Shown here: positions 2,941 to 17,282 of the stretch, piece after piece | Layout: each line of letters begins with the position of its first letter | Position numbering within the stretch: position 1 is the first letter of the stretch | From: Candidatus Uhrbacteria bacterium | Lineage (GTDB): Bacteria > Patescibacteriota > Patescibacteriia > SG8-24 | DNA: 17,352 nucleotides | NCBI GenBank assembly: GCA_016205965.1 | Contig: JACQSM010000077.1 | Location: 1-17,352 of the forward strand | Direction: 5' to 3' | Made by a program: the position numbers and the translations under genes | The notes under the pieces: generated by a model | The model's database searches: none | Told to the model about the DNA's origin: nothing | What the model saw: only the letters and a program-made list of their open reading frames with translations

Positions 2941-4932
2941 TCAGCTCCTCTGGCTGCCGGTGTTGTTGCCGTCGGCATGACCGGCCTTGGACGGCGTGTC
3001 CGTGCTAGGCGCGGGCTCGGTGACCGCCAGGTCTTCCGACGCGCCGGCCAGCTTCCCGGTCGCCGCGTCGGCAAGGCCGGAAAGCTTGCCGCCGATGCCC
3101 TTGAGCATGGCCAAGGCATCCACGCCCGCGCCGGCGAACATGCCGTCGAGGAACTTGGACCCGGACATGCCGCTGGTGAAGGCGCTGGTGATCTTCTCCA
3201 CGTCCTGTGAAGAACCGACCACCTCGACGTTGACCTTGCCCAACAGCGTCGCCTGGGCGTTGGCCATGGCGATCCGGACCTCGGCCTCCTTGGTGATCTG
3301 GAGCTTGGCCAGATCGAACTGCTGCGCCGCCTGGCCGAAATCCTGCCGAGCCTGGAGCTCGGGCTTGAGAACCTCGTCCACGTTCCGCTTGGCGATGTCG
3401 ACCTCCCTGGCCTTCACATCCACCGGAATCATGGCCGAGTTCTTCTGCACCTCGACCTTGGCCCGCTCCACGTCCACGGCGACCATCTGCGCCGCCTTGT
3501 CGCCTTCGGCCTGCTGCTTCTTGGCGCTGGCATCGGCTTCGGCCCGCTTGGTGATGGCCGTGGCCTCGGCTTCGGCCGCCAACTTCCGCGCTTCGGCGTC
3601 CTTCTGCGTCGCATAGGCGCTGGCGTCGGCCGTGCGCGAGGTCGACAGGTAGGCCTGCTCGGCCTTGGCCTTGGCCTCGATCACCTGCTTGGCCGCGGCA
3701 CGCTCGGCTTCGGCCGTCACCTGCACGGTGTGCACGGCTTGCCGCTGCTTCTCGCGGGCGGCTTCGGCCTCGGCCAGATCGGCTTCGGCCGTGGCTCGCG
3801 CCTTCTCGGCTTCGGCCACTGCCTGCTGCTTCTGACGCTCGGCGACTTCCACCGACTGCACGGCGGCGACCACCGCCTTCTCCCTCTCGCGCTGGGCGAC
3901 CTCGACGGCCTGCAGCTTCTGCTGCTCGGCCACCTCCACCGCCTGCTGCTGGGCGCGCAGGGCGGTCTCGACCGCCTTCTGCCTGCCGACGCCGGCGAGC
4001 TCGACCGCCTGTTGCGTCGTGATCTGGGCCTCCTTGGTGGCCTGATCCTGCTGCGCCTGGACCTTGGCGATCTCCGCCTTCTGGGCGGCCTCCGCCTGGG
4101 CCTGGGTCTGCTCCAGCTTCAGGACCGCCTGCTTGGCCTCCACGTTGAGCTTGGTCCTGGCCATCTCGCCCTGCCGCTCCAGCTGCGTCCGCTGGGTCTG
4201 CTGGGCCTGAGTGATCTCGGCGATGGTTCGCTTGCCCTGGGCGTCGAAGATGTTGTCGTCGCGCAGGTTCTTGGGATCCGTCTGGTCCAACTTTGAGATG
4301 GTCACCGTCTCGAGCGCCAATCCGTTGGGCGCCAAGTCCTTGGCGACGATGTCGATCACCGCCTTGAGGAACGTGTCCCTCTCGGAGTTGAGCTGCTCGA
4401 GCGTCCTGGTGGCCGCCACCGTGCGCAACGCCGAGATCAGCTTGTCCTGAAACTTCTCGGTGATGACGTGGGTGAACGACATGTTGGGCTTGATCTCGTC
4501 GCCGAACGAACGGGCGGCGTTCTTGATGTCGTCGTCCGTCGGCTTCACGTTGACGAAGAACTCGGCCGTGATGTCGGCGCGGAGCTTGTCATGGGTGATG
4601 AGCGAATCCGCTCCGACGCGGTTCACCACCAGACGGGTGGTGCTCAACGGCACGACGATCATCTGGTGGACCACCGGGATGACCAGCGCGCCGCCGTTGT
4701 TGATGACCTTGCTGCCGCCGGCGCCCGTACGGACGAAAGCCTCGGAGGCCTTGGTCTTGACGTACAGCTTGGTGACGGTCAGCACGGAGACGGAGAACAG
4801 GCACAAGACGATGCCGAACACCATCATGACCGTGGTGGCGAAGGCGCCGAGTGACGCGCCAGCGACGCTGGCGGCAACCGGCCCGAAGATCAGGGCCAAC
4901 GAAAACACGAACAACAGGATGATTCCGCTCAT
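2941..4932 (-). CDS. yqiK: Flotillin family protein (SPFH/band 7 domain, YqiK/FloT-like).
   Basis: 663 aa. N-terminal TM segments, then an SPFH domain (VINNGGALVIPVVHQMIVVPL...), then a very long Ala/Glu/Gln/Lys-rich 'flotillin' coiled-coil with degenerate AVEVAE repeats. AGGAG RBS 4 nt upstream of the ATG at 4932. The immediately upstream gene is an NfeD/YqiJ-like partner, the canonical pairing. Confidence 0.85.
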   Translation of the reverse strand: MSGIILLFVFSLALIFGPVAASVAGASLGAFATTVMMVFGIVLCLFSVSVLTVTKLYVKTKASEAFVRTGAGGSKVINNGGALVIPVVHQMIVVPLSTTRLVVNRVGADSLITHDKLRADITAEFFVNVKPTDDDIKNAARSFGDEIKPNMSFTHVITEKFQDKLISALRTVAATRTLEQLNSERDTFLKAVIDIVAKDLAPNGLALETVTISKLDQTDPKNLRDDNIFDAQGKRTIAEITQAQQTQRTQLERQGEMARTKLNVEAKQAVLKLEQTQAQAEAAQKAEIAKVQAQQDQATKEAQITTQQAVELAGVGRQKAVETALRAQQQAVEVAEQQKLQAVEVAQREREKAVVAAVQSVEVAERQKQQAVAEAEKARATAEADLAEAEAAREKQRQAVHTVQVTAEAERAAAKQVIEAKAKAEQAYLSTSRTADASAYATQKDAEARKLAAEAEATAITKRAEADASAKKQQAEGDKAAQMVAVDVERAKVEVQKNSAMIPVDVKAREVDIAKRNVDEVLKPELQARQDFGQAAQQFDLAKLQITKEAEVRIAMANAQATLLGKVNVEVVGSSQDVEKITSAFTSGMSGSKFLDGMFAGAGVDALAMLKGIGGKLSGLADAATGKLAGASEDLAVTEPAPSTDTPSKAGHADGNNTGSQRS

Positions 4933-5033
4933 GACTTGCTCCTTTTTTGGCGGCGCTGCGGCCGCACTGGTTTACCGCATTTCTTGCCTACCGCTTCCCC
5001 GCACCTGCGACTTGCACTTCACCGCACCGGCTT

Positions 5034-5720
5034 CTAGGCCTTCTCCTCCAAGTCCGGCGGGAGCCGTTCGACCACGTAGACGTCGTCGGTCTGATCGTAG
5101 TCGATCACGAGCACCGGCGCGTTCTTTTGCAATTCCTCGCCGTTGGTGCGGCAGGAAGCGTTGATGACGTTGCCCCCGCGGTCGTGCACCTGCATCAGGC
5201 CATGGGCCTTGCCGGCCGGCAGAATCAACTCGCCGGTCGACGTGATGAGATCGCGTTTGGTGAGCACGTAAGTCTCGGTTGCCGGCATGATCTTGCTCAT
5301 GAATCCGGCGAAACGGCCGGTGAGCGCGACCATGCCGACGAAGGCGATGGGCAGCGACACCAGGCCATAGAGCCATCCCGGCAGAAACTGCGACAGGAAG
5401 CTGTTGGCAATGAAGCCGATGCCGCCGAACGTGAGGGCGGCGGTGCTCAACACCAGGCTCATCGGCGCCCGGCCGATGCCGAGAATCGAGAGAGCCTTGC
5501 TGACGCTGCCGTGGCCGTCGTGGTGAATCTCGTGGCCGTCGAGTGCGTGCTGGGACGCATGATCCGACTCCGCGTCCGCGTCGGTATCGGCGTCCATGTC
5601 GGCGTCGCCGTCAGCGTCCGCGTTGGCGTCGCCGAATCCGAAAATGGACCCGGCGGCGAGCAACACTCCGCCGACAAGAGGGATGAGGAAGACGAGCGTC
5701 TGCCATGCGAAGAGGTCCAT
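5034..5720 (-). CDS. yqiJ: NfeD/YqiJ-like inner-membrane protein (DUF1449-type; C-terminal OB-fold), flotillin partner.
   Basis: 228 aa, starting at MDLFAWQ with AGGAGGGG 3 nt upstream. The ORF extends to 5774 but has no RBS there. Several TM helices. C-terminal 'TGELILPAGKAHGLMQVHDRGGNV...VLVIDYDQTDDVYVVERL' resembles the NfeD short beta-barrel. It carries an unusual acidic D/A-repeat and His-rich insert (GDANADADGDADMDADTDADAESDH...HEIHHDGHG). Confidence 0.6.
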   Translation of the reverse strand: MDLFAWQTLVFLIPLVGGVLLAAGSIFGFGDANADADGDADMDADTDADAESDHASQHALDGHEIHHDGHGSVSKALSILGIGRAPMSLVLSTAALTFGGIGFIANSFLSQFLPGWLYGLVSLPIAFVGMVALTGRFAGFMSKIMPATETYVLTKRDLITSTGELILPAGKAHGLMQVHDRGGNVINASCRTNGEELQKNAPVLVIDYDQTDDVYVVERLPPDLEEKA

Positions 5721-5848
5721 GGACCCCTCCTTTCGTTTGCCGCGTTCCGGCAGTGCCGGGGCGGCTGTTGTCAACGATCCGCTGCTCGAACCGGCGGCTC
5801 GAACAGATGATTGTGCTTACCACGTTTAAGCGGAGACGTCAAGCCTGG

Positions 5849-5877: not shown

Positions 5878-5910
5878 CCCATCGCTCGCTCATTGATAAA
5901 GGAGGCGGCG

Positions 5911-6959
<1,049 letters not shown>

Positions 6960-6963
<4 letters not shown>

Positions 6964-7820
6964 AATCGCGAATCGTGAACGCCGCCGTCATTCAATGCGC
7001 GCTGGGCGGCAGCCGGGATGACAACGCCCGCAAAGTGAAACAGCTCATCGATCAGGCGGCGCGAGCCGGAGCCAACGTCGTGGTCGCGCCGGAACTCTTC
7101 GAGACGCCGTACTTCTGCAGGACCAGGAGCCGCCGGCATTTCCAAGAGGCCACGACGCTAGATCGCAACCCGCTGATCGCCGACATGCGCCTGATCGCCC
7201 GCAGAAACAGCCTGGTGATCCCGTTCTCGTTCTTCGAGGACGGCGGTGACGGCCGCTATTTCAATACCGTCGCCATGATCGACGCCGACGGCCGCGGTCT
7301 CGGAACCTACCGCAAGAGCCACATTCCGACCGGACCCGGCTACTGGGAACGCCGCTACTTCGAACCAGGCGATACCGGCTTCAAAGTCTGGCGGACCAAG
7401 CACGGAAAGATCGGCGTCGGCATCTGCTGGGACCAGTGGTTTCCCGAATGCGCCCGCGCCATGGCCTTGGACGGAGCCGACCTGCTGTTGTATCCGTCGA
7501 CGATCGGCGCCGAGCCGCACCGACCGGATCTCGACACCCGCGACCGCTGGCGCCGCGTCATGATCGGCCATGCGGTCGCCAACGTCATCCCGATCGCCGC
7601 CGCCAACCGCACCGGCGTCGAGGACGGCATCGCCTACTACGGCTCGTCGTTCGTCTGCGATGACGCCGGCGAAATCGTCGCCGACATGGGCAGAGTGGCC
7701 CAAGGCTTCGCCATGGCCCAGATCGACATCAACGCCGTCCGGCGCAACCGCCGCGATTGGGGCCTGACCGGCTACCACCGCCGCCCCGACCTCTACGGCG
7801 CCCTCGTCAAAAAAGACTGA
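6960..7820 (+). CDS. aguB: N-carbamoylputrescine amidohydrolase (nitrilase/CN-hydrolase superfamily).
   Basis: 286 aa. CN-hydrolase catalytic triad context (VVAPELFETPYF ... YRKSHIP ... GVGICWDQWFPE). Translationally coupled to aguA through an ATGA overlap. Together the two genes convert agmatine to putrescine. Confidence 0.85.
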
Positions 7821-7882: not shown

Positions 7883-9031
7883 TCAGTTCGAACTCCGCTC
7901 GGCCGACTTTTTAGAATAGGCGACGGCGGCCATCCAGGTCGAGATCGGCACCGCCAGAATCAGGCCGCAGCTGCCGACCATGGTCCGAATGAATTCTTCG
8001 GCGATGGGCTCGCCGTTGAGCATGACCCACAGCGGCTGCGTCTGATTGTTGTGAAACACCAGGAAAAGCGGCAACGAAGCGCCGGCATACACGAGCGCCA
8101 GCGTGTTGACCAGCGAAGCGATGTGTTCGCGGCCGACAGAAAGCCCGCGCTTGTACAGCTCGCGATGCGACAGGGTCGGATCGGCGTTGTGAATCTCCTC
8201 GACCGCGGCGACTTGGGCGGTGGTGACGTCGTCGAGCACGCCGAGGGTGCTGATGATGATGCCGGCGAGCAGCAAGCCGCGCAGGTCGATGTTCGAAATC
8301 GGGCTGTATTGCAGATAGAACGCGGCATCGCTGCCGGCGCCGAACAGCCTGGCCATCCGAACGAACGCCGTCGCCAAAACGCCGGACGCGATCAGCGACA
8401 TGACCGTGGCCGCGACGGCCACCGTCGTCCTCTTCCCCGGGCCATGCGACATGAACATCGACAGCGCGATGATGAGCATGGAACCGGCGATGGCGGTCAT
8501 CAAAGGATCATAGCCGGCGGCGATCTGCGGCATGACGACCGTCGCCAAAATCAGGATGCTCAACATCAAGCCGACGAACGAGGCGAATCCGCGGCGGCGC
8601 CCCAAGGCGACGGCCAGCAGGAAGAAAAATCCGAGCACCGCCAGCATGGCCGGCATGCGGTAGTGGTCGGCGACGTAGTACCGAACGCCGGGATCCTCGC
8701 TGACGACGGCCAGAACCAATGTCTCGCCGACCTCGGCCCGCCGGAATGCGCCGGAGTCGTCGCTGTTTTCGATGTCGACCTCCCGGCCGCCGTCATCGCC
8801 TTCGAGCAGCCGACCGCGCAGCTCTTGCGTCTGCACTTTGACGCCGCCGGCGTCGCGCTCGCTCTCGTTGACGATCTGCGTCACCTTGGCGCGGACGAAT
8901 CGCGGAGCGATCACGTCGGAGATGTTGACTTCGGCCGGCGCCGTTCCGGCTTGTGCCAGCGTCGGCGCCGCCAAAGACAGCCCGTAAAATACGAGCGCGG
9001 CCGCCAAAAATATGGATATTCGCTTGGACAT
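7883..9031 (-). CDS. Polytopic membrane protein, putatively YibE/F family.
   Basis: 382 aa, starting at MSKRISIFLAAALVFYGLSLAAP (signal/TM). A ~120-aa extracytoplasmic segment is followed by 6-7 TM helices, consistent with the YibE/F layout. The longer TTG-initiated ORF to 9103 runs through the upstream terminator hairpin and is rejected. No clear RBS at 9031. Confidence 0.4.
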   Translation of the reverse strand: MSKRISIFLAAALVFYGLSLAAPTLAQAGTAPAEVNISDVIAPRFVRAKVTQIVNESERDAGGVKVQTQELRGRLLEGDDGGREVDIENSDDSGAFRRAEVGETLVLAVVSEDPGVRYYVADHYRMPAMLAVLGFFFLLAVALGRRRGFASFVGLMLSILILATVVMPQIAAGYDPLMTAIAGSMLIIALSMFMSHGPGKRTTVAVAATVMSLIASGVLATAFVRMARLFGAGSDAAFYLQYSPISNIDLRGLLLAGIIISTLGVLDDVTTAQVAAVEEIHNADPTLSHRELYKRGLSVGREHIASLVNTLALVYAGASLPLFLVFHNNQTQPLWVMLNGEPIAEEFIRTMVGSCGLILAVPISTWMAAVAYSKKSAERSSN

Positions 9032-9071
9032 GGAATCAGTGTAGGCAATTCCAGGCGAATGCGCCACTGAC

Positions 9072-9099
9072 AAAAAAAGGAACGGAATGAATCCGTTCC
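9072..9099 (-). terminator. Rho-independent terminator after the vWA gene.
   Basis: On the minus strand after the TGA at 9126-9128: GGAACGGA-UUCAU-UCCGUUCC (8-bp perfect stem, 5-nt loop), followed by UUUUUUU. Confidence 0.7.
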
Positions 9100-9125
9100 A
9101 CAAAACGACGACCCGCCGCGTCAGG

Positions 9126-11174
9126 TCACGAGCAGGCGAACTGCTCCCGCCAGGTCACGCGCTTGAGCGAAGCGCCCTGGAACGCGGCATTCTGCTCCAG
9201 CTTGGGATACGTCCCGCGCTGGGTGCCCTTGCCGGCGTCCCAGGCGATGGCCTTGGAGCCGGTGACCTCCATGGCGAAGATGATGGCCCGCTTGAGATAG
9301 CGGACGGTAATCAAGCGCTGACGCACCTGCTTGACCCTGGTCCCGGCCTGCGCGTGGCTCATCTTGGCCGCGGCCTCGGCGTAGCTGCCGGCCTTGTACT
9401 TCATCAACCGGTACTCCACGCACCCGGCCTCGTACGTCTCCACCGGCACGCCCTGAACCTTCTCGGCCCGGCCGTGGTGGAACTCGTCCTCCTCGCCGTC
9501 ATCCTCGCCGGACGGAACCGTTGCCCCGATGCGGGCGTTGAGCGCCGTCTGCTCGGCCTTGAGCTCGGCCTCTTCCTGCATCAGCTTGACGAGTCCGAGC
9601 GTGGCCGGATTGCTCCAGTTGCCCGAGATCATCTTGATGTTGCGCAGGTTGAGGGTGTAGCACTTGCCGGGCACGTGCTTCTCGACGGCGCCGATCACCC
9701 CGGCCGACTGCAGATCCGCGAAGCTCTTGTCGGTCAGGACCGCCTCGAGCTCGGGCGTGTGCAGATTGCCGTCCAGGATGATGTTGAAGGTCCGATGCAG
9801 CTTCTTGTCTTCGGCCGGGCCGCCGTTCTCGGGCAGCACCTTGGCGTCGACCACGCACTGGACCGAGAAGTTGAAACGCGCCTTGTGGCTGCGGTAGCCG
9901 ACCACTCTCATGGTCTTGCCCAGCGGCGACGGGATGATGCGCGGGTCGCGGGTCATCTCGCCCGAGCGCTTGTAGGCGCCCTTGCCGAGGTAGACCACGT
10001 TGCCCTCGTCTTCCATCAGCGCCCGCAGGACGTTGAGCACGTTATGGTTCGGCCCCTTGGGCTTCAAGCCTTCGCCGATGTGCTTGCGGTCCCGGAACAT
10101 GCGCCGGAACTCGTCGGCCGTCTCGCGCTTCTCGCGCGGCGTGTACGACGAACCCGCCTTCTCGGCCAGGCCGTCGGCGCCGGCATTGATGAGGATCTCC
10201 ACGGCCCCGGCGCTGTCCCCGGTGATATACAGATAGGCCGCCTTGGCGATGGCGTAGCTCTTGGCCGACTCCGGCGTCAATGCCGTTGCCTTGACCGTCT
10301 GTTCCACCTTCTGGCCGTTCATCCGTCCGCGGATGGTGAACTCGTCGCATTCCTGGGTCAGCTCCACGAACAGCGTGGTCTTGCCCTGGTATGCGCCGCG
10401 GGTCCGGACGTGACCACCATCGCCGATGCTGGTCAACTCGGGCGTGGTCTTGAAGACCCTCCCCGCCGGGCCCTTGGCCGGCACGATCGCAAGGTCGAAG
10501 TTGACCGGGCGCGTGTCGCGGAAGACTTCGTCGGCGCTGACGATGGCCGGTCCGAAGTCCTCGATGTCGGAGATGTGGCGGTAGATGCCGGTGTAGCCGG
10601 CCGCCTCGGTCAGCGTCTCCATGAAATCCTGGTTGTAGTGGACGCCGTAGCCGATGACGGAAACGGAAGCGCCGGCCTCATCGAGCGCGCGAACCACGCT
10701 GAACGCCTTCTGCTCCTCCGCGTCCACGCTCCACCGGCTCGGCATGGCGCAGCCATCGGTGAACAGCACCGCATGGTGCAGCATGTCCTTGCGCGCCAGC
10801 CGCTCGACGGTCTGAAGCGTCAGCACGAGCGGCTCCGAGAAGACGGTGGTGTCCATGACGCGAACCTCCTTCTCGACGGCCTGCTTCAGCAGCTCGCGAC
10901 CGGCATGGTTGCACTGCGTCGGGCCGGCGATGAGCTTGGCCCGGTCATGGCCCGAGAAGACGATCACCGACGCGAAGTCGTTGTCGCCCAGCTCGGACAG
11001 GTACTTCTGGCTGTCGCTCTTGAGGTCGTTGATGTTCCCGCCCATCGAGACGGAACAGTCCTCGATCAGAATGGTGTGGCGGAATTCCGGCGTGGCGACG
11101 TCGCCCACATCCAGATCCACCATGACCACGTGCCGAAAACCCTTGATCAAACCTGACTGTGCGTAAATTTTCAA
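9126..11174 (-). CDS. Large von Willebrand factor A (vWA) domain protein with complete MIDAS motif; C-terminal ~450 aa of unknown fold.
   Basis: Contains RHTILIEDCSVSMGG (the DxSxS MIDAS motif), VIVFSGHD and LFTDGCA, a typical vWA beta-sheet order. Preferred start is TTG at 11174 with AAGGAG 6 nt upstream. The alternative ATG at 11237 (703 aa) lies ~9 nt from a predicted TSS and has no RBS. The gene is flanked by its own promoter-like element and terminator. Confidence 0.75.
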   Translation of the reverse strand: MKIYAQSGLIKGFRHVVMVDLDVGDVATPEFRHTILIEDCSVSMGGNINDLKSDSQKYLSELGDNDFASVIVFSGHDRAKLIAGPTQCNHAGRELLKQAVEKEVRVMDTTVFSEPLVLTLQTVERLARKDMLHHAVLFTDGCAMPSRWSVDAEEQKAFSVVRALDEAGASVSVIGYGVHYNQDFMETLTEAAGYTGIYRHISDIEDFGPAIVSADEVFRDTRPVNFDLAIVPAKGPAGRVFKTTPELTSIGDGGHVRTRGAYQGKTTLFVELTQECDEFTIRGRMNGQKVEQTVKATALTPESAKSYAIAKAAYLYITGDSAGAVEILINAGADGLAEKAGSSYTPREKRETADEFRRMFRDRKHIGEGLKPKGPNHNVLNVLRALMEDEGNVVYLGKGAYKRSGEMTRDPRIIPSPLGKTMRVVGYRSHKARFNFSVQCVVDAKVLPENGGPAEDKKLHRTFNIILDGNLHTPELEAVLTDKSFADLQSAGVIGAVEKHVPGKCYTLNLRNIKMISGNWSNPATLGLVKLMQEEAELKAEQTALNARIGATVPSGEDDGEEDEFHHGRAEKVQGVPVETYEAGCVEYRLMKYKAGSYAEAAAKMSHAQAGTRVKQVRQRLITVRYLKRAIIFAMEVTGSKAIAWDAGKGTQRGTYPKLEQNAAFQGASLKRVTWREQFACS

Positions 11175-11252
11175 AGTCCTGCTCCTTGGTGGGGCGGATT
11201 CGCCAGGAACCCGCGCGTTCGTTTGCCCCGAGGTCATCCCGAGACATGGCGG

Positions 11253-11281
11253 TTTGTAGCAAAAAAATAACGGTTCGTCAA
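11253..11281 (-). promoter_or_regulatory. Candidate promoter for the vWA gene: TTGACG -35 (11281-11276), 17-nt spacer, TACAAA -10 (11258-11253).
   Basis: Minus-strand sequence TTGACGaaccgttatttttttgcTACAAA lies between the Ubl terminator and the vWA gene. The predicted TSS is ~11246. Confidence 0.35.
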
Positions 11282-11289
11282 GGTCCTGT

Positions 11290-11317
11290 AATTAAAAAAC
11301 CGCCGCTCATGCGACGG
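11290..11317 (-). terminator. Intrinsic terminator (or attenuator) after the Ubl gene.
   Basis: Minus-strand RNA CCGUCGC-AUGA-GCGGCGG (7-bp stem including one G-U pair), followed by UUUUUUAAUU. Starts ~28 nt after the Ubl TGA. Confidence 0.5.
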
Positions 11318-11344
11318 TTCGTAGCGCGTCTGCCGCCCTCGGGA

Positions 11345-11599
11345 TCACGAGCCCTGGGGGCGCTCCTCCACCTTGACAGAGACGACATTGGCCAATGCCC
11401 TGTCGCCCGGACCGACGAAGGTGTCGAGCGTGGCCGGCTTGTCGTTGACGTACAGGTCCTTGTTCTTGGCCGAGACGCCGGCCTCCTTGAGCACCTCGCC
11501 CAGCTTGGCGCCGCTCTTGTTGACTTCCACCTGCTGGACCTTGGGCTTGCCCTGCTCACCGTTGACCTTCAACTCAACCTTGAACTTTCCCGCAGCCAT
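11345..11599 (-). CDS. Small beta-grasp ubiquitin-like protein (ThiS/MoaD-like) with non-canonical C-terminus (…VKVEERPQGS).
   Basis: 84 aa, starting at MAAGKFKVELKVNGE with AAGGAGG 5 nt upstream. The alternating beta/alpha pattern and 'LYVNDKPATLDTFVGPGDRALANVVSV' resemble the ThiS/MoaD 'VNGE...L.DGDEV.I.PPVSGG' region. It ends in Gly-Ser after an 8-residue tail rather than Gly-Gly. Lies 37 nt downstream of the E1-like gene. Confidence 0.55.
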   Translation of the reverse strand: MAAGKFKVELKVNGEQGKPKVQQVEVNKSGAKLGEVLKEAGVSAKNKDLYVNDKPATLDTFVGPGDRALANVVSVKVEERPQGS

Positions 11600-11636
11600 G
11601 GCTGCCTCCTTGTTCTGGGCCCGACATTGGGCCATT

Positions 11637-12317
11637 TCAATCCTCGACCGGGGTTTCCACTTCGTCCGCCGCCTCTTCAGCGTCGAAATCCCTGGCCAGA
11701 AACCGCTTGTGTGGCCTCATCCTGCCACCGGACCACTGAACTGTCAACTGTTTGACGACCCAGTTGGCCGCGTCGACGGCGACGAACACGATGCTGTGCT
11801 GGCCGCAATGCTGCATATTGGCCTCGCTCGACGGATACAGAAAGTGCTCGTAGTAGGCCTTATTCTGGACGTCGCATGGCTTGAGCGCGAAGATGGACAA
11901 GAACTCGACCGTGATCCGGGTGTCGATGAAGGCGTCGACCAACCCGTTGTCCTTCACCTGGTCCCAGATCAGCTTGCGCGCCTCCATGGAGTCGACGCAG
12001 GCGATGACCGTTCCCTTGAGTGGCTCGCCGGCGTACATCCGCTGGATGACCTTGAGGTTCACGCCGCTCTTGGCTCGGACCAGGCGCTCCAAGGCCGTGA
12101 CCTTGAACATGCCGATGTCGTCCTGACCGTAAGCCGAGGGCGCGATGTTGTGCGACTCAATGCCGTCTTCGTCGTAGACTGTGATGTCGTTGACGCCGAG
12201 TTTGGCCAGGATGTCCACGACCCAGCTGCCGACCGAACCGGCGCCGATGACGGTCACCGGCGAGGCGTTCAGCGGGTTGAAGATCTTGGACTGCTGCGAC
12301 AAGTTGAGCGCGTTCAT
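11637..12317 (-). CDS. E1-like enzyme of the ThiF/MoeB/HesA superfamily (ubiquitin-activating-like Rossmann fold), minimal form.
   Basis: 226 aa, starting at MNALNLSQQ with GGAGG 7 nt upstream. It has the nucleotide-binding loop VTVIGAGSVGSWVVDILAKLGV, the acidic DITVYDEDGIE segment and the D-x4-R motif (CVDSMEARK). Candidate catalytic Cys residues at KPCD and QHCG. There is no CxxC...CxxC zinc motif and a divergent HNIAPS replaces the usual NLxRQ. The ATG overlaps the stop of the upstream E2-like gene (ATGA). Confidence 0.8.
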   Translation of the reverse strand: MNALNLSQQSKIFNPLNASPVTVIGAGSVGSWVVDILAKLGVNDITVYDEDGIESHNIAPSAYGQDDIGMFKVTALERLVRAKSGVNLKVIQRMYAGEPLKGTVIACVDSMEARKLIWDQVKDNGLVDAFIDTRITVEFLSIFALKPCDVQNKAYYEHFLYPSSEANMQHCGQHSIVFVAVDAANWVVKQLTVQWSGGRMRPHKRFLARDFDAEEAADEVETPVED

Positions 12318-13801
12318 GGAAAAACCTCCGGGGCGACCGGCGCGTTGCCGGTTGGGCCGTCGTTGTTGGGTACGGCGGTTTCGCGGCTTTCCGCCGGCGT
12401 CGGGAGCGACTCCGGCGGCCAAGTCTCGATCTTCACCCGCGCGATCGCCGGCGTGTAGCCGTACTCGAGCCAGCGCAGCACGTGCAGGACGGCATCGGCG
12501 TAACGATGCTCGCCGGCCGCTTGGGTGATGACGTCGGTGACGTTGCCGAAGCAGGGCGTGCCGTCATCGTTGATGTGCGGATGCGACTCGTTCTTCGGGT
12601 GCGTCGGCGACTCGTTCCAGAGGCTGACGCGGCCATGCTGATTGATCCGGATGACGAACTCGCCGACCGGATAGCGCCGGCCGGCATGCTCGATCACGAT
12701 CTGCTTGGTGCCGACGTGCAAACCGTCCTGGACCAGCTCCACCGACGCGACTAGTGGATGGGAGATCAAACGGCGCGTGTCTTCTGGCACGCGCGACAAC
12801 TCCCTTTCAATGAAACCGGAGGTCGTGAGGGTATCGCGGAACATCTCGTACTCGCGTCTGACGCGATACATCACGGCCAGCTGCTGGCGATAGACGTCGA
12901 TTTCGGCATCACACCGCGCAATCTCCTCGGCGATATGTTTGGCTTTTGGGTCGAGCCATTTCTGCGCCATCTGCTTGAGCGCGCCGCGCCGGATGCGGGC
13001 CGGTTTCTTCTTGGCTGGCTTGGCCCGAAGACCTTCCCAGGCCAGCTTCACCATCGATTCGAACACTTGTTGTTGGCGGCCGAGGTCCTTGTCGCTGATG
13101 ACCGGAATCAAGAAGTAGACATTGGAGCCGACGATCTGCACCAACGGCCCCTTGTCGTCTTCGAGCACCGTCCCGCGTCCAGCCGACGGCCCATGACCAA
13201 TGCGGCGATCCAAGCCGTTCTTGAGGTCGATACCGAAGGCGGAGTCGATGTATCTCGTGGCACCGTCGCCCGGCGGACGGCTGTTGGTGTAGATGTGGAT
13301 CTCTCCATCCTTGTCCGGCTGCGGCGCTTTCGGCAGGCCGCCATTGGCATGATAGTAGACGTGCAGGCCGCTCAAACAGGCCAGACGTCGAAGATAGGCG
13401 AAGACCAGCGCATAGGTGGCCGCGTATTCCTCGCGTTCCTTGGCTTCGAGCTTGTCCATGTCCACGACCGTGAGCATTTCTCTCCTCAACGGATAATGGA
13501 GGTCGAGGAAACGGTGGCCCATGATACAGGACGTAGTTTGCCATTCTTCTTTGGCGTCGGAACCGGCGAGACTCTTGGCAAGCGCCACGACCAAGTCATA
13601 CTTCTGCTTCCCGGTCGAAAGCAGGCAGACGTCGATGTCGAGTCCGTCGAAGTTTACCGTCTTGAAGCGCGGTTTGAGGCCGGCCTTTGCGAAGGCCTCA
13701 TCCTTGCCTCGCACCAGCCATGCCGGAAGGCAGAAGAGGTTTCTGGAGTTCTTCGGGGCCGGAGTCTCGGATTCGGTTTCCTTCTTCTCCGCGGGATCCA
13801 T
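12314..13801 (-). CDS. 495-aa fusion protein: uncharacterised N-terminal ~330-aa region plus a C-terminal E2/UBC-like ubiquitin-conjugating domain.
   Basis: C-terminal 'YPVGEFVIRINQHGRVSLWNESPTHPKNESHPHINDDGTPCFGNVTDV...ADAVLHVLRWLEYGY' fits the UBC pattern (strand pair, HPN/HPH loop, G-x-x-C catalytic Cys, following helix). AGGAGG RBS 5 nt upstream of the ATG at 13801. The stop overlaps the E1-like start. Antisense ORF 12758..14071 is rejected. Confidence 0.65.
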   Translation of the reverse strand: MDPAEKKETESETPAPKNSRNLFCLPAWLVRGKDEAFAKAGLKPRFKTVNFDGLDIDVCLLSTGKQKYDLVVALAKSLAGSDAKEEWQTTSCIMGHRFLDLHYPLRREMLTVVDMDKLEAKEREEYAATYALVFAYLRRLACLSGLHVYYHANGGLPKAPQPDKDGEIHIYTNSRPPGDGATRYIDSAFGIDLKNGLDRRIGHGPSAGRGTVLEDDKGPLVQIVGSNVYFLIPVISDKDLGRQQQVFESMVKLAWEGLRAKPAKKKPARIRRGALKQMAQKWLDPKAKHIAEEIARCDAEIDVYRQQLAVMYRVRREYEMFRDTLTTSGFIERELSRVPEDTRRLISHPLVASVELVQDGLHVGTKQIVIEHAGRRYPVGEFVIRINQHGRVSLWNESPTHPKNESHPHINDDGTPCFGNVTDVITQAAGEHRYADAVLHVLRWLEYGYTPAIARVKIETWPPESLPTPAESRETAVPNNDGPTGNAPVAPEVFP

Positions 13802-13812
13802 TTATGCCTCCT

Positions 13813-13840
13813 AGGCACGTCGTTCGCGAACGACGTGCCT
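13813..13840. promoter_or_regulatory. 28-bp perfect palindrome AGGCACGTCGTTCG|CGAACGACGTGCCT in the 5' leader of the E2-E1-Ubl operon (operator or RNA hairpin).
   Basis: Perfect dyad with 14-bp arms and no mismatch. It lies immediately upstream of the AGGAGG Shine-Dalgarno (13807-13812) of the E2-like gene and downstream of a promoter-like element. Confidence 0.5.
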
Positions 13841-13886
13841 TGTTGTAATGTCAATGATCCGCCTGCCGTTTTTTGGCAGACCGCTC

Positions 13887-13914
13887 ACCTTAGCACTTTT
13901 TCGGCGGGCGTCAA
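13887..13914 (-). promoter_or_regulatory. Candidate promoter for the E2-E1-Ubl operon: TTGACG -35 (13914-13909), 16-nt spacer, TAAGGT -10 (13892-13887).
   Basis: Minus-strand TTGACGcccgccgaaaaagtgcTAAGGT sits between the upstream gene stop (13923) and the palindrome. The -10 match is weak. Confidence 0.3.
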
Positions 13915-13922
13915 GCGGAGGA

Positions 13923-14495
13923 CTAATCGCACGAACACGGACCCCAATGATGGATGTCGTGGTGTTTGCACGGACAGGATGCGTGACTGCGCCAGAAAGC
14001 CGGGCAGCCGGCATTCGCCTTTTCTTCGCCTAAAAACTCGCCTTCGGGCGGCAGACGAAAATCAGCAGTGAGCTTTTCCGGCAATACCTTATACAGGGTT
14101 CGGTCGTCCTCAAGCGTCAGCGGCCTTCCTTTCATATCCCGATGCGCGGCGATCGCTTTCATGAGCCGATCGAGTTCGAGCCGCAAAGATTCTTCGGACA
14201 TCACCTCGAGATCATCGTCCCATTTTTGAGAATCGGCCTGTGCATCGGCAGGAATCGGATCCGCCGCATCGGCCCGGCGATGCGTGAAAAAATCGCGACA
14301 TCGCGCCATCATCTCGTCATGCGGCGGCAGAGCCGTCGGCTTGGGCGGCGTATCCTCGAGCAGCGCCCAAAGCTTATAATCGTCCAGCCAGCAGCGATCA
14401 TCGCCCTTTTGGTCGCGATGATAACGGATGCTCTGCCGAAATTTTTTGATCGCCGCGGAGAGTTTCCCGCGAGTCATGTTTTGATCGAAGATCAT
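13923..14495 (-). CDS. Hypothetical protein with Cys/His-rich C-terminal cluster (CPAFWRSHASCPCKHHDIHHWGPCSCD), possible metal-binding (treble-clef-like) module.
   Basis: 190-aa ORF 9 nt downstream of the HAD gene stop and 120 nt upstream of the E2-like gene on the same strand. Sense-like codon usage in a lower-GC stretch. No RBS at either candidate ATG (14495 or 14477). No recognisable family. Confidence 0.4.
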   Translation of the reverse strand: MIFDQNMTRGKLSAAIKKFRQSIRYHRDQKGDDRCWLDDYKLWALLEDTPPKPTALPPHDEMMARCRDFFTHRRADAADPIPADAQADSQKWDDDLEVMSEESLRLELDRLMKAIAAHRDMKGRPLTLEDDRTLYKVLPEKLTADFRLPPEGEFLGEEKANAGCPAFWRSHASCPCKHHDIHHWGPCSCD

Positions 14496-14504
14496 TTTTT
14501 GATC

Positions 14505-15155
14505 TTACACCGTTGGCGCGCATGTCGATAATTCGCGGCCGATTTCGCGCAAACATTCACCGGCATTCCGATGGGCATCGACACGAAATGCGCGGCCGCC
14601 GAGCTCGTCGAACAGATCGCAGGTCTTCCTCGAATCATCGACCAAAAAAGCGTTCGACATCGGGACGCCGAATTCGTCGGCGAGATCGGCGAAGGTCCGA
14701 CCGCGTTGATCGGTTTTCAAACGCCTGACATCCGAACTGTTGACGATACGATCGAAAAATTCGTCCAGCCGGAGCGCCGCGATCGTGAATCTCGAGAAAC
14801 AATCCATGTTATCGGTGACCAGCGCCAGGCGCGCTGTTTTGCGGAGGTCGCGTAACAGAGGGATCGCGTCGTCATGCAGCCGCATATTTTTGCAGCTTTC
14901 CGCCAATGCATCCATCAATGATTCTGCGGGCACTGAAAGCTGCGGCGCCAATAGGTCGCAAATTTCTTCCGAGGACAGCTCCCCCAGCATCCACTGACGA
15001 ACCCGGCCGCGATCGGCGCCGAACAGCAGCGACTGAATCTTTTGGTAAATCTCCGGCCGCATAGTTTGGAAAGATTGCCAAAACCGCGAACCGGACAGCG
15101 TCCCGTCCCAATCGATGAACACCAATGGCCTCCGTTGAACATTCCCGATTCCCAT
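14505..15155 (-). CDS. HAD-superfamily hydrolase/phosphatase.
   Basis: 216 aa, starting at MGIGNVQRRPLVFIDWDGTL (HAD motif I DxDGT). Motif II is LALVTDN and motif IV is AFLVDDS. The longer start at 15206 would overlap the divergent plus-strand gene head-to-head. Confidence 0.7.
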   Translation of the reverse strand: MGIGNVQRRPLVFIDWDGTLSGSRFWQSFQTMRPEIYQKIQSLLFGADRGRVRQWMLGELSSEEICDLLAPQLSVPAESLMDALAESCKNMRLHDDAIPLLRDLRKTARLALVTDNMDCFSRFTIAALRLDEFFDRIVNSSDVRRLKTDQRGRTFADLADEFGVPMSNAFLVDDSRKTCDLFDELGGRAFRVDAHRNAGECLREIGRELSTCAPTV

Positions 15156-15170
15156 GATACCAAGTATAAG
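15142..15170 (+). promoter_or_regulatory. Candidate promoter for the small plus-strand ORF: TTCCCG -35, 17-nt spacer, TATAAG -10.
   Basis: TTCCCGattcccatgataccaagTATAAG, ending ~35 nt upstream of the ATG at 15205. The -35 match is weak. Confidence 0.25.
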
Positions 15171-15204
15171 ATAACGCGATTTCAGGCGCGAGGAGGAGTC
15201 CGTC

Positions 15205-15519
15205 ATGACGAAGAAAACAACGGCGAAGGTTTCAAAGAAGTTGCGGAAAATCTACGGCGACGCCAAAAAAGAGGGCATCTGGATCCGCGAATACAAGGGC
15301 GGTACCGGTTATCTGGCGGCCGCCGGCTACATGAAGGTCATCGAGGCCTGGGAAAAGAAGCTAAGCCGCAAGATCGACATCGAAAAACTCGAACTCGGCG
15401 ATGTGGTCGCCGTCGCCGCTCCAGGAACCGGCAAGACCAGGGAAGAGGCCTGCGAAAATGCCGTCACGAACCTAAAAAAAAGCGAGAAACCTCGCAGAGC
15501 TTCCAAGCCGCGTCGCTGA
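15205..15519 (+). CDS. Small lysine-rich basic protein (104 aa), function unknown (possible nucleic-acid-binding/regulatory protein).
   Basis: Strong AGGAGGAG RBS 6 nt upstream of the ATG. Clear third-position G/C bias. Occupies an otherwise empty intergenic segment, divergent from the HAD gene and convergent with the 349-aa gene. No family recognised. Confidence 0.5.
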   Translation: MTKKTTAKVSKKLRKIYGDAKKEGIWIREYKGGTGYLAAAGYMKVIEAWEKKLSRKIDIEKLELGDVVAVAAPGTGKTREEACENAVTNLKKSEKPRRASKPRR

Positions 15520-15584
15520 CCGCGGCTTTTTCATTCGATGGATTAAAAAACTCCGCGGGATTTCCACGGAGCCGGTGAAGGCGC

Positions 15585-16634
15585 TTACCAGATCTCGTTT
15601 GCGGCCGGACGGACGGTGACGCGAGCCCCCGGCGATGCCGACTTGATCTTCTCAACGTGCGCCGGATCGTCGCAGACCATGAACAAACTGCCGAAGCTTG
15701 ATGTGCCGAAGCCGTCGCTCATCTCGCCGCGAGTCACCTCGACCTCTTTGGTGACCGGCTTGCCGCAGCCATCCACATGGCAGGTGTGCGTGACTCGGCC
15801 GCGAATGTAGGCCCGCGTCTGTTCCATGAAGGTCGTCGGCCAAACGGTGTCCGTCGTCTCGACGAAGACGTTGTTGAGCTTGAGCCGCTGCGGCTGATCG
15901 GCCGAGGCCAAAACAACGATCCTCTTTCCGCCATCCTCGAAGTCCTTATTCCAGCCGCCACCGTAGTAAACTCCGCTCTTCAGCAGCAATGGATCGAACT
16001 TGAACTCGACGTAGTGCTTGCCGGTCGCCCGATCCCGCCAATGATAGGCATGATCGACGATCCTCGAGATCGGCACATCGCTCTCGTTGGCGTAAGCCGC
16101 GGGCGCGGTCGCCAGCCCCAGCCGTTTGGCCAGTTGCAGCGCGACCTCGGCTGCCTCCGGACTGAAGACGGAGATCGTGAGCGCATGACCGCTCAACCGC
16201 GCCGCCGACAGGAAACGATGGCGCTGGAAAGATCCGTTCGATGAAGACCATCCCGATTGCCATGATCCTTGGAGAGTCTTGGGCGCGGCTTCGGTCAGGA
16301 TCAGATGAGCCTCGCCGTGCGACTTCGTGGCCGGATCGAGGATCACGCCCGGAATACGAAACTCCTCGACCAGAGCGCCAATCATGGCTCTGATTTCATC
16401 GAAAGAAATCTGATCGGTTTTCCGGTATGGCGTGGTGAAGGTGACATCGATGCCGAACGCGCTCCTGACGGCCAACTCACCGAAACTCAAGCCGCGATTT
16501 TCAATCTCATCTTCCAGCCGGCGGCGATCGTCTCTGTCGAGCCTCATGAGATAGGAATAGACATCTTTGCCGGAGAATGAGCCCGTGGGCAGCTTCGCTT
16601 CCATCTTGAACAAACGGCCAATCGATCCGAACAT
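15585..16634 (-). CDS. Hypothetical protein (349 aa) with C-terminal Cys/His cluster (HTCHVDGCG...CDDPAH).
   Basis: Starts at MFGSIGRLF with GGAGG 5 nt upstream. Sense-like codon usage. No family recognised by eye. The cluster is a possible zinc-ribbon-like module. Confidence 0.5.
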   Translation of the reverse strand: MFGSIGRLFKMEAKLPTGSFSGKDVYSYLMRLDRDDRRRLEDEIENRGLSFGELAVRSAFGIDVTFTTPYRKTDQISFDEIRAMIGALVEEFRIPGVILDPATKSHGEAHLILTEAAPKTLQGSWQSGWSSSNGSFQRHRFLSAARLSGHALTISVFSPEAAEVALQLAKRLGLATAPAAYANESDVPISRIVDHAYHWRDRATGKHYVEFKFDPLLLKSGVYYGGGWNKDFEDGGKRIVVLASADQPQRLKLNNVFVETTDTVWPTTFMEQTRAYIRGRVTHTCHVDGCGKPVTKEVEVTRGEMSDGFGTSSFGSLFMVCDDPAHVEKIKSASPGARVTVRPAANEIW

Positions 16635-16716
16635 CTTTGCCTCCGTCGGCGCGCGTAGCACGCTTGGATTTCAAACGAGCTTGCGGCGATGAGAATATCA
16701 GGAGTCCGGCGCGCGG

Positions 16717-17244
16717 TCAACGGGCCGAAACCAAATCCACGTTCGATCCTTCGATGACCTGGCCGAGGAACGGCAGCAGCGCGCGCTGATAATTTTGAAA
16801 CTCGAGCCGATCTTCTTCGACAATCTCCTCCTTCTGCAGTTCGACTTCAAAAATCTGACCGACATCTTTCACGGTATCGAGATGAAAAACGGCATCGCCC
16901 TTCCGCCAAACCTCCCGGGTCTTTTCGACGATGGCGCGGGTACCGAGGCATTGCTCGAGAAACGGCAATAGCATATCGTCGCCGACCGAATACAGTTTAA
17001 CCAGCGCCGGCGTCACCGCGCCGCTCACGAACGACGGTCGTTCATAATAGACGAGCGTCTTCTGTGCGTTTTCGATCCGAAGTTTCAGACGCGGCTGCTG
17101 GCCGCCATTCTCCGCCGGCAGAAAGAAAAAATAATCTTTCTGATTCTTGACGATCTCCTTATGCGCGCCAATCTGCTCCAAAACTTCGCGCACCTTAGCG
17201 AAATCCTGGCAAAAATGTTTCAGCTCGAGGTTGATCTTGTTCAT
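16717..17244 (-). CDS. CYTH-domain protein (CyaB-like class IV adenylyl cyclase / triphosphatase family).
   Basis: 175 aa from MNKINLELKHF. This N-terminal ExExK-type motif is characteristic of CYTH/CyaB, and size (~175-180 aa) fits. The alternative GTG start at 17262 adds 6 residues. No RBS at the ATG. Confidence 0.6.
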   Translation of the reverse strand: MNKINLELKHFCQDFAKVREVLEQIGAHKEIVKNQKDYFFFLPAENGGQQPRLKLRIENAQKTLVYYERPSFVSGAVTPALVKLYSVGDDMLLPFLEQCLGTRAIVEKTREVWRKGDAVFHLDTVKDVGQIFEVELQKEEIVEEDRLEFQNYQRALLPFLGQVIEGSNVDLVSAR

Positions 17245-17282
17245 AGAACGAAATTGTAGCACGTGGGACGCGATGCGGCTCT

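Follow-up and report, generated by a model that had tools for sequence, protein, structure and literature searches.

The DNA considered here (the window) is a complete 17,352-nt contig from a metagenome-assembled genome (MAG) of a Candidatus Uhrbacteria bacterium, which belongs to Patescibacteria (CPR, short for candidate phyla radiation). Its minus strand carries three consecutive genes encoding an E2-like fusion protein, an E1-like adenylating enzyme and a small ubiquitin-like protein (Ubl), and this trio is found in the same order in 21 distinct loci. Judged from sequence and predicted structure, the trio is on balance probably an autonomous three-gene ubiquitin-like conjugation cassette, whose E1-to-E2 thioester cascade would attach the Ubl to targets. 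An E1-like enzyme with intact nucleotide-binding motifs, an E2-like domain with an invariant cysteine and a predicted beta-grasp protein with an invariant Gly-Ser tail are the elements on which this explanation is built.

The E2-E1-Ubl trio

The trio and its functional elements lie in the window as follows.

12314-13801, minus strand: E2-fusion gene, 495 aa; in order, an N-terminal domain, a long helix forming a coiled coil, and a UBC-like domain at the C-terminus
13007-13750, minus strand: N-terminal domain of the E2 fusion, residues 18-265; about 250 aa, compact alpha/beta, fold without assignment
12416-12814, minus strand: UBC/E2-like catalytic domain, residues 330-462
12575-12583, minus strand: HPH motif, residues 407-409, counterpart of the E2 HPN motif; invariant
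12551-12553, minus strand: Cys417, predicted E2 active-site cysteine, within CFGN; invariant, aligned to Cys85 of UbcH5B
11637-12317, minus strand: E1-like adenylating enzyme, 226 aa, ThiF family (by Pfam ThiF)
11805-11807, minus strand: Cys171 of the E1-like enzyme; invariant
11345-11599, minus strand: Ubl, 84 aa, predicted ThiS/SAMP2-like beta-grasp protein (by profile comparison)
11348-11365, minus strand: C-terminal tail of the Ubl, E-R-P-Q-G-S, with the stop codon directly after it; conserved across the family

Related loci were taken from genome, metagenome and assembly collections. By tblastn and all-against-all clustering of open reading frames (ORFs), the E2 fusion is followed in the 21 loci by a ThiF protein of 215-226 aa and then by a small protein of 71-97 aa, with 26-88% identity to the window proteins, and in most of these loci the E2 and E1 genes overlap or abut. 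An earlier sequence-only reading of the window, all of whose ORFs are present where it placed them, had taken the three genes for one cassette, and the recurrence of their order supports it. That reading also called the three genes translationally coupled. This holds between E2 and E1, where the E1 start overlaps the E2 stop as ATGA, and does not extend to the Ubl gene, which begins 37 nt past the E1 stop, closely spaced and non-overlapping, behind a strong ribosome-binding site (RBS; AAGGAGG).

The flanks of the trio are housekeeping genes that differ by lineage (SerRS, FtsQ-like, Dus, TopA, DprA, RelA, and a thiamine-pyrophosphate (TPP) enzyme with an aldehyde dehydrogenase), a genomic context that argues for a host function over a mobile defence island. 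ORF clustering across loci identified no further gene that recurs with the trio, save an AAA_28 protein and a 204-aa protein in one subclade. There the 204-aa protein (L001 11099-11713, minus strand; L018 7014-7628, plus strand) and the AAA_28 protein (L001 13600-14706, minus strand) adjoin the trio despite an inversion, which could reflect lineage synteny or an accessory component. Neither JAB nor any other peptidase was matched among the 16 window ORFs scanned, in agreement with the sequence-only reading, which had seen no deubiquitinase (DUB); JAB is also absent from every bacterial trio locus, and no peptidase is linked to the trio in these loci.

The E1-like protein matches Pfam ThiF (PF00899) at 1.4e-16 (60.8 bits against a cut-off of 28.1) and has the motifs of a Rossmann-type ATP-binding fold, which together place it in the E1-like adenylation superfamily, as had been read from its sequence. 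The family profile matches UBA5, ThiF, MccB, PaaA and the NEDD8 E1 (NAE1) at about 1e-11 to 1e-9, with UBA5 the top match among solved structures. The protein carries GAGSVG and DSMEAR, both invariant, and across the family the residues GxGxxG, D49, K72, D109, R114 and C171 do not vary. Cys171 is located 62 residues past the Mg-binding Asp, a distance that we take to be similar to that of the crossover-loop Cys in ThiF and MoeB. At 215-226 aa across loci, the enzyme is a single adenylation domain. Its scores fall far under the cut-offs of the ThiF, MoeB, PRTRC and Cap2 models: 52 bits versus 275 for TIGR02356, 21-27 bits versus 266-376 for the MoeB models and 38.8 bits versus 144.75 for TIGR03736 (PRTRC ThiF). 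PADLOC returned only partial matches via the generic E1 Rossmann region.

Scans of Pfam, NCBIfam, PADLOC and PHROG left the 495-aa protein without a match. In its AlphaFold2 model (14 homologues, pLDDT 81) the N-terminal part is an alpha/beta domain and the C-terminal part an alpha1-beta-meander-loop-alpha2-alpha3 unit; between them runs the long coiled-coil helix, some 70 residues in length (about residues 274-346). The C-terminal unit contains the elements of a UBC/E2 fold, namely alpha1, a meander of four strands, an HPN-type loop, the predicted active-site Cys and C-terminal helices. Alignment of the domain profile with UbcH5B by hhalign is weak (probability 32%, E 5e-4) and in register from alpha1 to the active site, placing HPH407-409 on HPN and Cys417 on Cys85. 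The assignment of a UBC/E2-like domain to this C-terminus, made earlier from sequence, is thus upheld by the model and by this alignment. Curated E2 families (Pfam UQ_con and Prok-E2_A to E) were not matched: at E≤0.1, Pfam returned nothing for the window protein, a viral homologue or 10 relatives. The E2 profile likewise matched no solved E2 among PDB sequences; DPY30, the sole PDB-sequence match of the C-terminal domain profile, was judged spurious. In an alignment of 13 homologues and the window protein, H407, P408, H409, C417, F418, G419 and N420 are invariant, and of the 155 top-ranking family members all but one (154) retain H-x-H-(5-9)-C-x-G. The N-terminal domain, retained also in viral relatives, is a candidate module for target recognition or E1 docking.

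A profile of 15 Ubl sequences matches Pyrococcus SAMP2/PF1061 at 2.6e-4 over 64 positions, and its PDB matches are the SAMP2 entries 1rws and 5lda (2.6e-4 to 3.4e-4, about 60 residues). By hhalign, the Ubl aligns at 80% probability with a ThiS-type Ubl at the same operon position in the viral contig L011. The C-terminal Gly-Gly of ThiS, MoaD and SAMP Ubls is absent, and ER-x-x-G-S followed by the stop codon forms the C-terminus of all 19 bacterial Ubl sequences examined. Given an invariant tail and bacterial loci that all lack a linked peptidase, the terminal serine is most likely the residue that E1 would activate. Alternatively, the serine may be a one-residue cap taken off by an unlinked protease; the GG-C and GG-R tails of viral relatives are parallels, as is the UFM1 precursor, which ends Gly-Ser-Cys with a single Gly.

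A related cassette, composed of an E2-like protein, a JAB peptidase and a short E1, is present on four viral contigs of 46-77 kb from IMG/VR. The viral E2-like protein has the same N-terminal domain and an HPH...PCFGN motif, the JAB protein has HSHx7SxxD (Prok-JAB 7.6e-5), and on two of the contigs ThiS-type Ubls end in KGG-C (a di-Ubl) or KGG-R. BFVD, too, has uncharacterised viral proteins, comparable in length, with which about 200 columns of the fold are shared. The family therefore has two forms, a viral one with JAB and GG-capped Ubls and a bacterial one with no peptidase and a GS-ended Ubl, and the viral cassettes tie it to bona fide Ubl/JAB systems. A third viral Ubl (L035 3019-3243, minus strand) ends IKAGSN, intermediate between the viral GG-cap and the bacterial Gly-Ser tails. 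In L011 the C-terminal tail of the E2-like protein (8900-10654, plus strand) is rich in Cys (...WTCPNCGERYEEYHFRCSECDCCESCCPGC) and may be a zinc-ribbon or RING-like E3 module.

A word-indexed protein search gave only 14 relatives of the E2 fusion, and the extreme rarity this implied was overturned by an exhaustive hidden Markov model (HMM) search. Against 1.84 billion representatives the E2-fusion HMM matched 3049 at E≤1e-3, where the weak tail may contain coiled-coil noise, 1473 at ≤1e-10 and 236 clusters at ≤1e-30. The 150 best family members are mostly 370-550 aa long, with the profile covered over most of their length, and the remainder are shorter fragments; none of 10 sampled E2-family members has a Pfam domain or a source name. 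The source labels available for relatives are Patescibacteria, Parcubacteria or Uhrbacteria, and from these few labels the family appears to be centred on the Patescibacteria. Two trio contigs, L007 and L009, come from MAG bins with the unconfirmed labels Candidatus Binatia and Gammaproteobacteria; L007 is syntenic with the Parcubacteria contig L001. This points to mis-binning or to transfer outside the CPR. In the literature searched, whose coverage is incomplete and is no proof of absence, a ubiquitin-like system in Patescibacteria/CPR is not described, the one co-mention being a generic citation.

Transcription unit and neighbouring genes

The surrounding features, from the upstream side of the trio to the downstream side, are listed below.

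16717-17262, minus strand: CYTH-domain protein (ORF call and family scan)
15585-16661, minus strand: 358-aa protein (p358), with a terminator 3' of the gene
14505-15206, minus strand: HAD hydrolase (supported by family scan)
13923-14495, minus strand: 190-aa Cys/His-rich protein; no family match
13887-13914, minus strand: promoter-like element TTGACG-16 nt-TAAGGT, 28 nt; seen in alignment of the E2 5' region with L013 and conserved there
13814-13839, strand not applicable: 26-nt perfect palindrome GGCACGTCGTTCGCGAACGACGTGCC, directly 5' of the E2 RBS
13807-13812, minus strand: Shine-Dalgarno sequence AGGAGG of the E2-fusion gene
11297-11320, minus strand: intrinsic terminator closing the trio (terminator prediction); conserved in L023
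9126-11237, minus strand: ORF of the vWA/MIDAS protein (Pfam VWA); the NCBI start, TTG at 11174, gives 682 aa
9079-9099, minus strand: terminator after the vWA gene (terminator prediction)

The trio probably has its own transcription start and terminator, because the upstream element and the terminator are conserved in its nearest relatives (L013 and L023). The promoter consensus scan of the window missed the TTGACG-16-TAAGGT element, whose -10 hexamer is weak. The palindrome GGCACGTCGTTCGCGAACGACGTGCC occurs once in the window against none expected and is absent from the otherwise conserved L013 leader; it is possibly an operator, an RNA hairpin or a translational hairpin. Rfam and tRNA scans of the window gave no matches.

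As the sequence-only reading described, the terminator of the trio is followed by the 682-aa vWA/MIDAS protein with a terminator of its own. This protein matches Pfam VWA at 1.6e-5 and has the MIDAS motif DCSVS. On the other side, upstream of E2, lie the HAD and Cys/His-rich genes, 9 nt apart; no terminator is predicted between this pair and the E2 gene. The reading had cast all three proteins as partners of the trio. By tblastn, none of them is found in any other trio locus. L013 is the closest relative (E2 65% identity; CYTH, p358 and p104 syntenic at 70-83%), and it retains of the HAD gene a 36-aa remnant (5277-5387, plus strand) and has no Cys/His-rich gene. In L023 (E1 88% and Ubl 78% identity) the terminator is kept, but the gene beyond it is another one in place of vWA. 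Within 8 kb of the vWA orthologues (44-60% identity) in three genomes, L037-L039, E1, E2 and Ubl are all missing, and an orthologue of the Cys/His-rich protein in a further genome (L040-L042) likewise lacks them in its flanks, available over about 5 kb or less. Because the three are absent from other trio loci, and because the vWA and Cys/His-rich orthologues occur elsewhere without E1 or E2, the vWA, HAD and Cys/His-rich genes are unrelated neighbours of the trio. When conservation of the neighbourhood is followed across genomes, then, the trio stays linked and the vWA, 190-aa and HAD genes do not.

An IS (insertion sequence)-type transposase-like ORF lies in L013 between p358 and p104 (4081-4872, minus strand); with the HAD remnant, it indicates a recent deletion or rearrangement beside the cassette. 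Many Patescibacteria encode relatives of the vWA protein at 43-65% identity, which together form a well-conserved family about 680 aa long, and its C-terminal portion of roughly 450 aa carries no annotation. Distant vWA homologues in large Rhizobium phages (phrog_2426) stand alone, and a linkage of the vWA protein to the trio via phages was dropped. The viral contig L011 encodes a 239-aa vWA-like protein with the MIDAS motif DRSGSM (4491-5210, minus strand; phrog_7371), about 4 kb from the viral cassette. The 190-aa Cys/His-rich protein (C-terminus ...CPAFWRSHASCPCKHHDIHHWGPCSCD) has no match in Pfam, NCBIfam, PADLOC or PHROG scans and no Pfam domain; it has >150 homologues at 48-64% identity, the few labelled ones being mostly Patescibacteria and one labelled a DPANN archaeon. 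The idea that the protein is equivalent to the Zn-finger tail of the viral E2, in detached form, was dropped, as the two have no similarity.

Elsewhere in the window, G+C is 0.555-0.58 at 13000-16000 (HAD, Cys/His-rich, p104 and p358 genes) versus 0.63-0.65 over much of the remaining contig, consistent with a variable or acquired segment. The CYTH and p358 pair is bounded by terminators and conserved in L013 at 83% and 75% identity. Agmatine deiminase and N-carbamoylputrescine amidase, a putrescine pathway pair, are encoded at 5893-7820 (plus strand) with a 4-nt overlap, and at 2941-5774 (minus strand) a 663-aa SPFH/flotillin-like protein adjoins an NfeD/YqiJ-like membrane protein.

Proposed mechanism and competing explanations

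We propose that the ThiF-like E1, as a homodimer-type enzyme, would bind the Ubl and adenylate its C-terminal carboxylate, as its intact ATP and Mg motifs suggest. The acyl group would probably pass to Cys171 of the E1, given the invariance of this residue and its ThiF/MoeB-like spacing after DxxxxR. The fold of the UBC-like domain and the in-register HPH...C point to Cys417 as the next predicted acceptor of the Ubl. The E2 fusion may then place the Ubl on target nucleophiles without a separate E3, and its N-terminal domain could supply recognition of the target or of E1; these last two suggestions are speculative.

Several observations weigh against a conjugation cascade. The E1 has neither a UFD nor a Cys domain, which leaves recruitment of the E2 without an explanation, and the Ubl scores 15 bits against Pfam SAMP2, below the cut-off of 27. 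In one member of the family, L027, neither E1 nor Ubl lies next to the E2 gene. We know of no precedent for a C-terminal Ser among E1-activated Ubls, and the chemistry could differ.

The widest of the competing explanations is the one advanced by the sequence-only reading, in which the trio, the vWA/MIDAS protein as target or adaptor, the HAD protein and the Cys/His-rich protein make up one larger new system. Such a system would suit the adjacency of these genes on one strand, the 9-nt spacing of HAD and Cys/His with no terminator before E2, and the small vWA-like gene about 4 kb from the viral cassette in L011. It is at odds with the absence of all three proteins from the other trio loci, the bare HAD remnant in L013, the different gene past the terminator in L023 and the vWA and Cys/His orthologues that occur without E1, E2 or Ubl, as well as with the terminator between the Ubl gene and vWA and the conserved promoter-like element between the Cys/His and E2 genes. 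The neighbourhood analysis has largely refuted it, and we regard it as extremely improbable. Only slightly easier to entertain, and still very unlikely, is a sulfur-carrier pathway of the ThiS/MoaD/TtuB type, in which the E1 would make a Ubl thiocarboxylate for thiolation of a cofactor or tRNA. The E1 is indeed minimal and ThiF/MoeB-like, ThiF models are among its best NCBIfam partial matches and the Ubl is closest to ThiS/SAMP2-type beta-grasp proteins. However, the tail is Gly-Ser instead of Gly-Gly, the E1 reaches 52 bits where the equivalog cut-off is 275, linkage to an E2-like protein whose Cys is invariant is obligatory, and no ThiG, ThiH, MoaE, TtuA, rhodanese or cysteine desulfurase is found in the window or in Pfam-annotated relatives. 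The sequence-only reading had set this pathway aside, rightly on these grounds.

The trio may instead perform no protein conjugation at all: the E1 would modify the C-terminal serine of the Ubl in the manner of MccB or PaaA (for example by adenylation followed by side-chain cyclisation or small-molecule transfer), and the UBC-like protein would be a scaffold or acceptor. The best PDB matches of the E1 profile include MccB and PaaA (about 1e-10), all bacterial loci lack a linked peptidase, and the Ser at the terminus never varies, unlike caps that are cleaved off, which tend to vary (C, R and SN in the viral Ubls). Against this, a thioester site is the simplest reading of the invariant HPH...Cys in a UBC fold, the Ubl is predicted to be a folded 80-aa domain and not a short peptide, and the homologous viral operons with GG-ended Ubls and JAB have the signature of a conjugation system; we think such modification improbable. 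A role in Bil-like anti-phage defence, by which the same conjugation chemistry would tag phage structural proteins during infection, is less remote, if still unlikely. The characterised bacterial E1/E2/Ubl operons (CBASS-Cap2 and Bil) are all anti-phage and Bub is suspected to be (PMC11601596), direct target choice by an E3-less E2 is proposed for Bil, relatives of the trio are present on viral contigs, and the cassette is bordered, in the window as in L013, by variable genes and an IS element. Yet PADLOC matches nothing but the generic Rossmann region of the E1, no regulator of CapW/CapH/CapP type can be seen, and the DUB that every Bil operon has is missing. The cassette also sits among housekeeping genes (SerRS, FtsQ-like, TopA, DprA, RelA, TPP enzymes) in lineage-conserved synteny, and not in defence islands.

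A conjugation cascade thus remains our preferred explanation of the trio. A fuller proposal, which we put forward tentatively and hold to be well short of probable, is that Patescibacteria have a lineage-wide, chromosomal, DUB-less tagging pathway of housekeeping type. Its E2 would combine a near-canonical HPx...Cys site with a new recognition domain, its Ubl would be activated at serine, and phages would carry JAB-equipped derivatives of it.

Comparison with known conjugation systems

The likeness of the trio to UFM1-UBA5-UFC1, where UBA5 heads the structure matches of the E1 profile, is shown at superfamily level only. UBA5 is a minimal E1 with its Cys inside the adenylation domain; UFM1 is processed by UfSP proteases and UFC1 has no HPN motif, in both of which the trio differs. 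With the ThiS-ThiF, MoaD-MoeB and SAMP-UbaA pairs the trio has in common a minimal E1 and, by prediction, a ThiS/SAMP2-like beta-grasp protein, and it differs from them in its non-Gly-Gly tail, its obligatory E2-like partner and the lack of sulfur-transfer genes nearby. A PRTRC affiliation finds no support, since the ThiF score is below the cut-off and no other PRTRC model was matched by the window proteins.

Bacterial operon types 6a-6e were defined by Iyer et al. 2006 (PMC1779556), and 6b corresponds to type II CBASS, 6d to Bil and 6e to Bub (PMC11601596). Bil, like the trio, has separate Ubl, E2 and E1 genes in one operon and no E3, its E2 being presumed to select targets; its JAB peptidase and GG-capped Ubls resemble the viral relatives of the trio family. 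Bil, however, always has a JAB DUB (BilC), whereas the bacterial trio has no peptidase, and the Bil E1 has an IAD-AAD-CYS architecture in place of the one 226-aa adenylation domain of the trio. The trio E2 has a 250-aa N-terminal domain, a coiled coil and an HPN-like HPH, the histidine of which the 6d E2 lacks (PMC1779556); the trio Ubl ends Gly-Ser, and no sequence model connects the two systems. Bub (6E/DUF6527) resembles the trio as an E1/E2/Ubl operon that can be JAB-less (type II) and in its non-canonical chemistry at the conjugation step. The Bub E1 and E2 are without catalytic Cys and use Tyr and Ser oxyesters, whereas Cys171 and Cys417 of the trio are invariant; Bub proteins are fused (Ubl-E2, JAB-E1 or E2-E1), whereas the trio genes are separate. 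Bub also always has a DUF6527 serine protease (PF20137, BubE), and DUF6527 turned up neither in the scan of 16 ORFs from the window nor in the Pfam annotation of related loci. Type II CBASS comprises a CD-NTase, an effector and a Cap2 E2-E1 fusion, with or without Cap3. The trio has none of these, its E2 and E1 are separate and it has a dedicated Ubl, predicted to be a beta-grasp protein; Pfam and NCBIfam scans of the window gave no CD-NTase or effector family.

The trio would work like an E1-E2-Ubl cascade but belongs to no named family, because it lacks defining features of each of Bil, Bub, CBASS, PRTRC and the sulfur-carrier pathways, as the sequence-only reading had noted for Bil, Bub and CBASS-Cap2. 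The family comprises hundreds to thousands of sequence clusters, yet has no Pfam, NCBIfam, PADLOC or PHROG model, and its few labelled hosts are ultra-small, host-dependent bacteria whose regulatory biology is almost unexplored. If the fuller proposal of a lineage-wide pathway is true, the trio would be a housekeeping-type bacterial E1-E2-Ubl system with new terminal chemistry. Its three small genes bear on whether an E1 can activate a C-terminal serine and on how a minimal, E3-less E2 chooses its targets, and the JAB-bearing viral relatives offer a natural comparison for the gain or loss of deconjugation. Beside the few characterised systems, CBASS-Cap2, Bil and Bub, which are tied to phage defence and mobile islands, the trio family would represent a fourth kind, set apart by the architecture of its E2, the smallest E1 of these systems, a peptidase-free operon and a Ubl with a Gly-Ser terminus.

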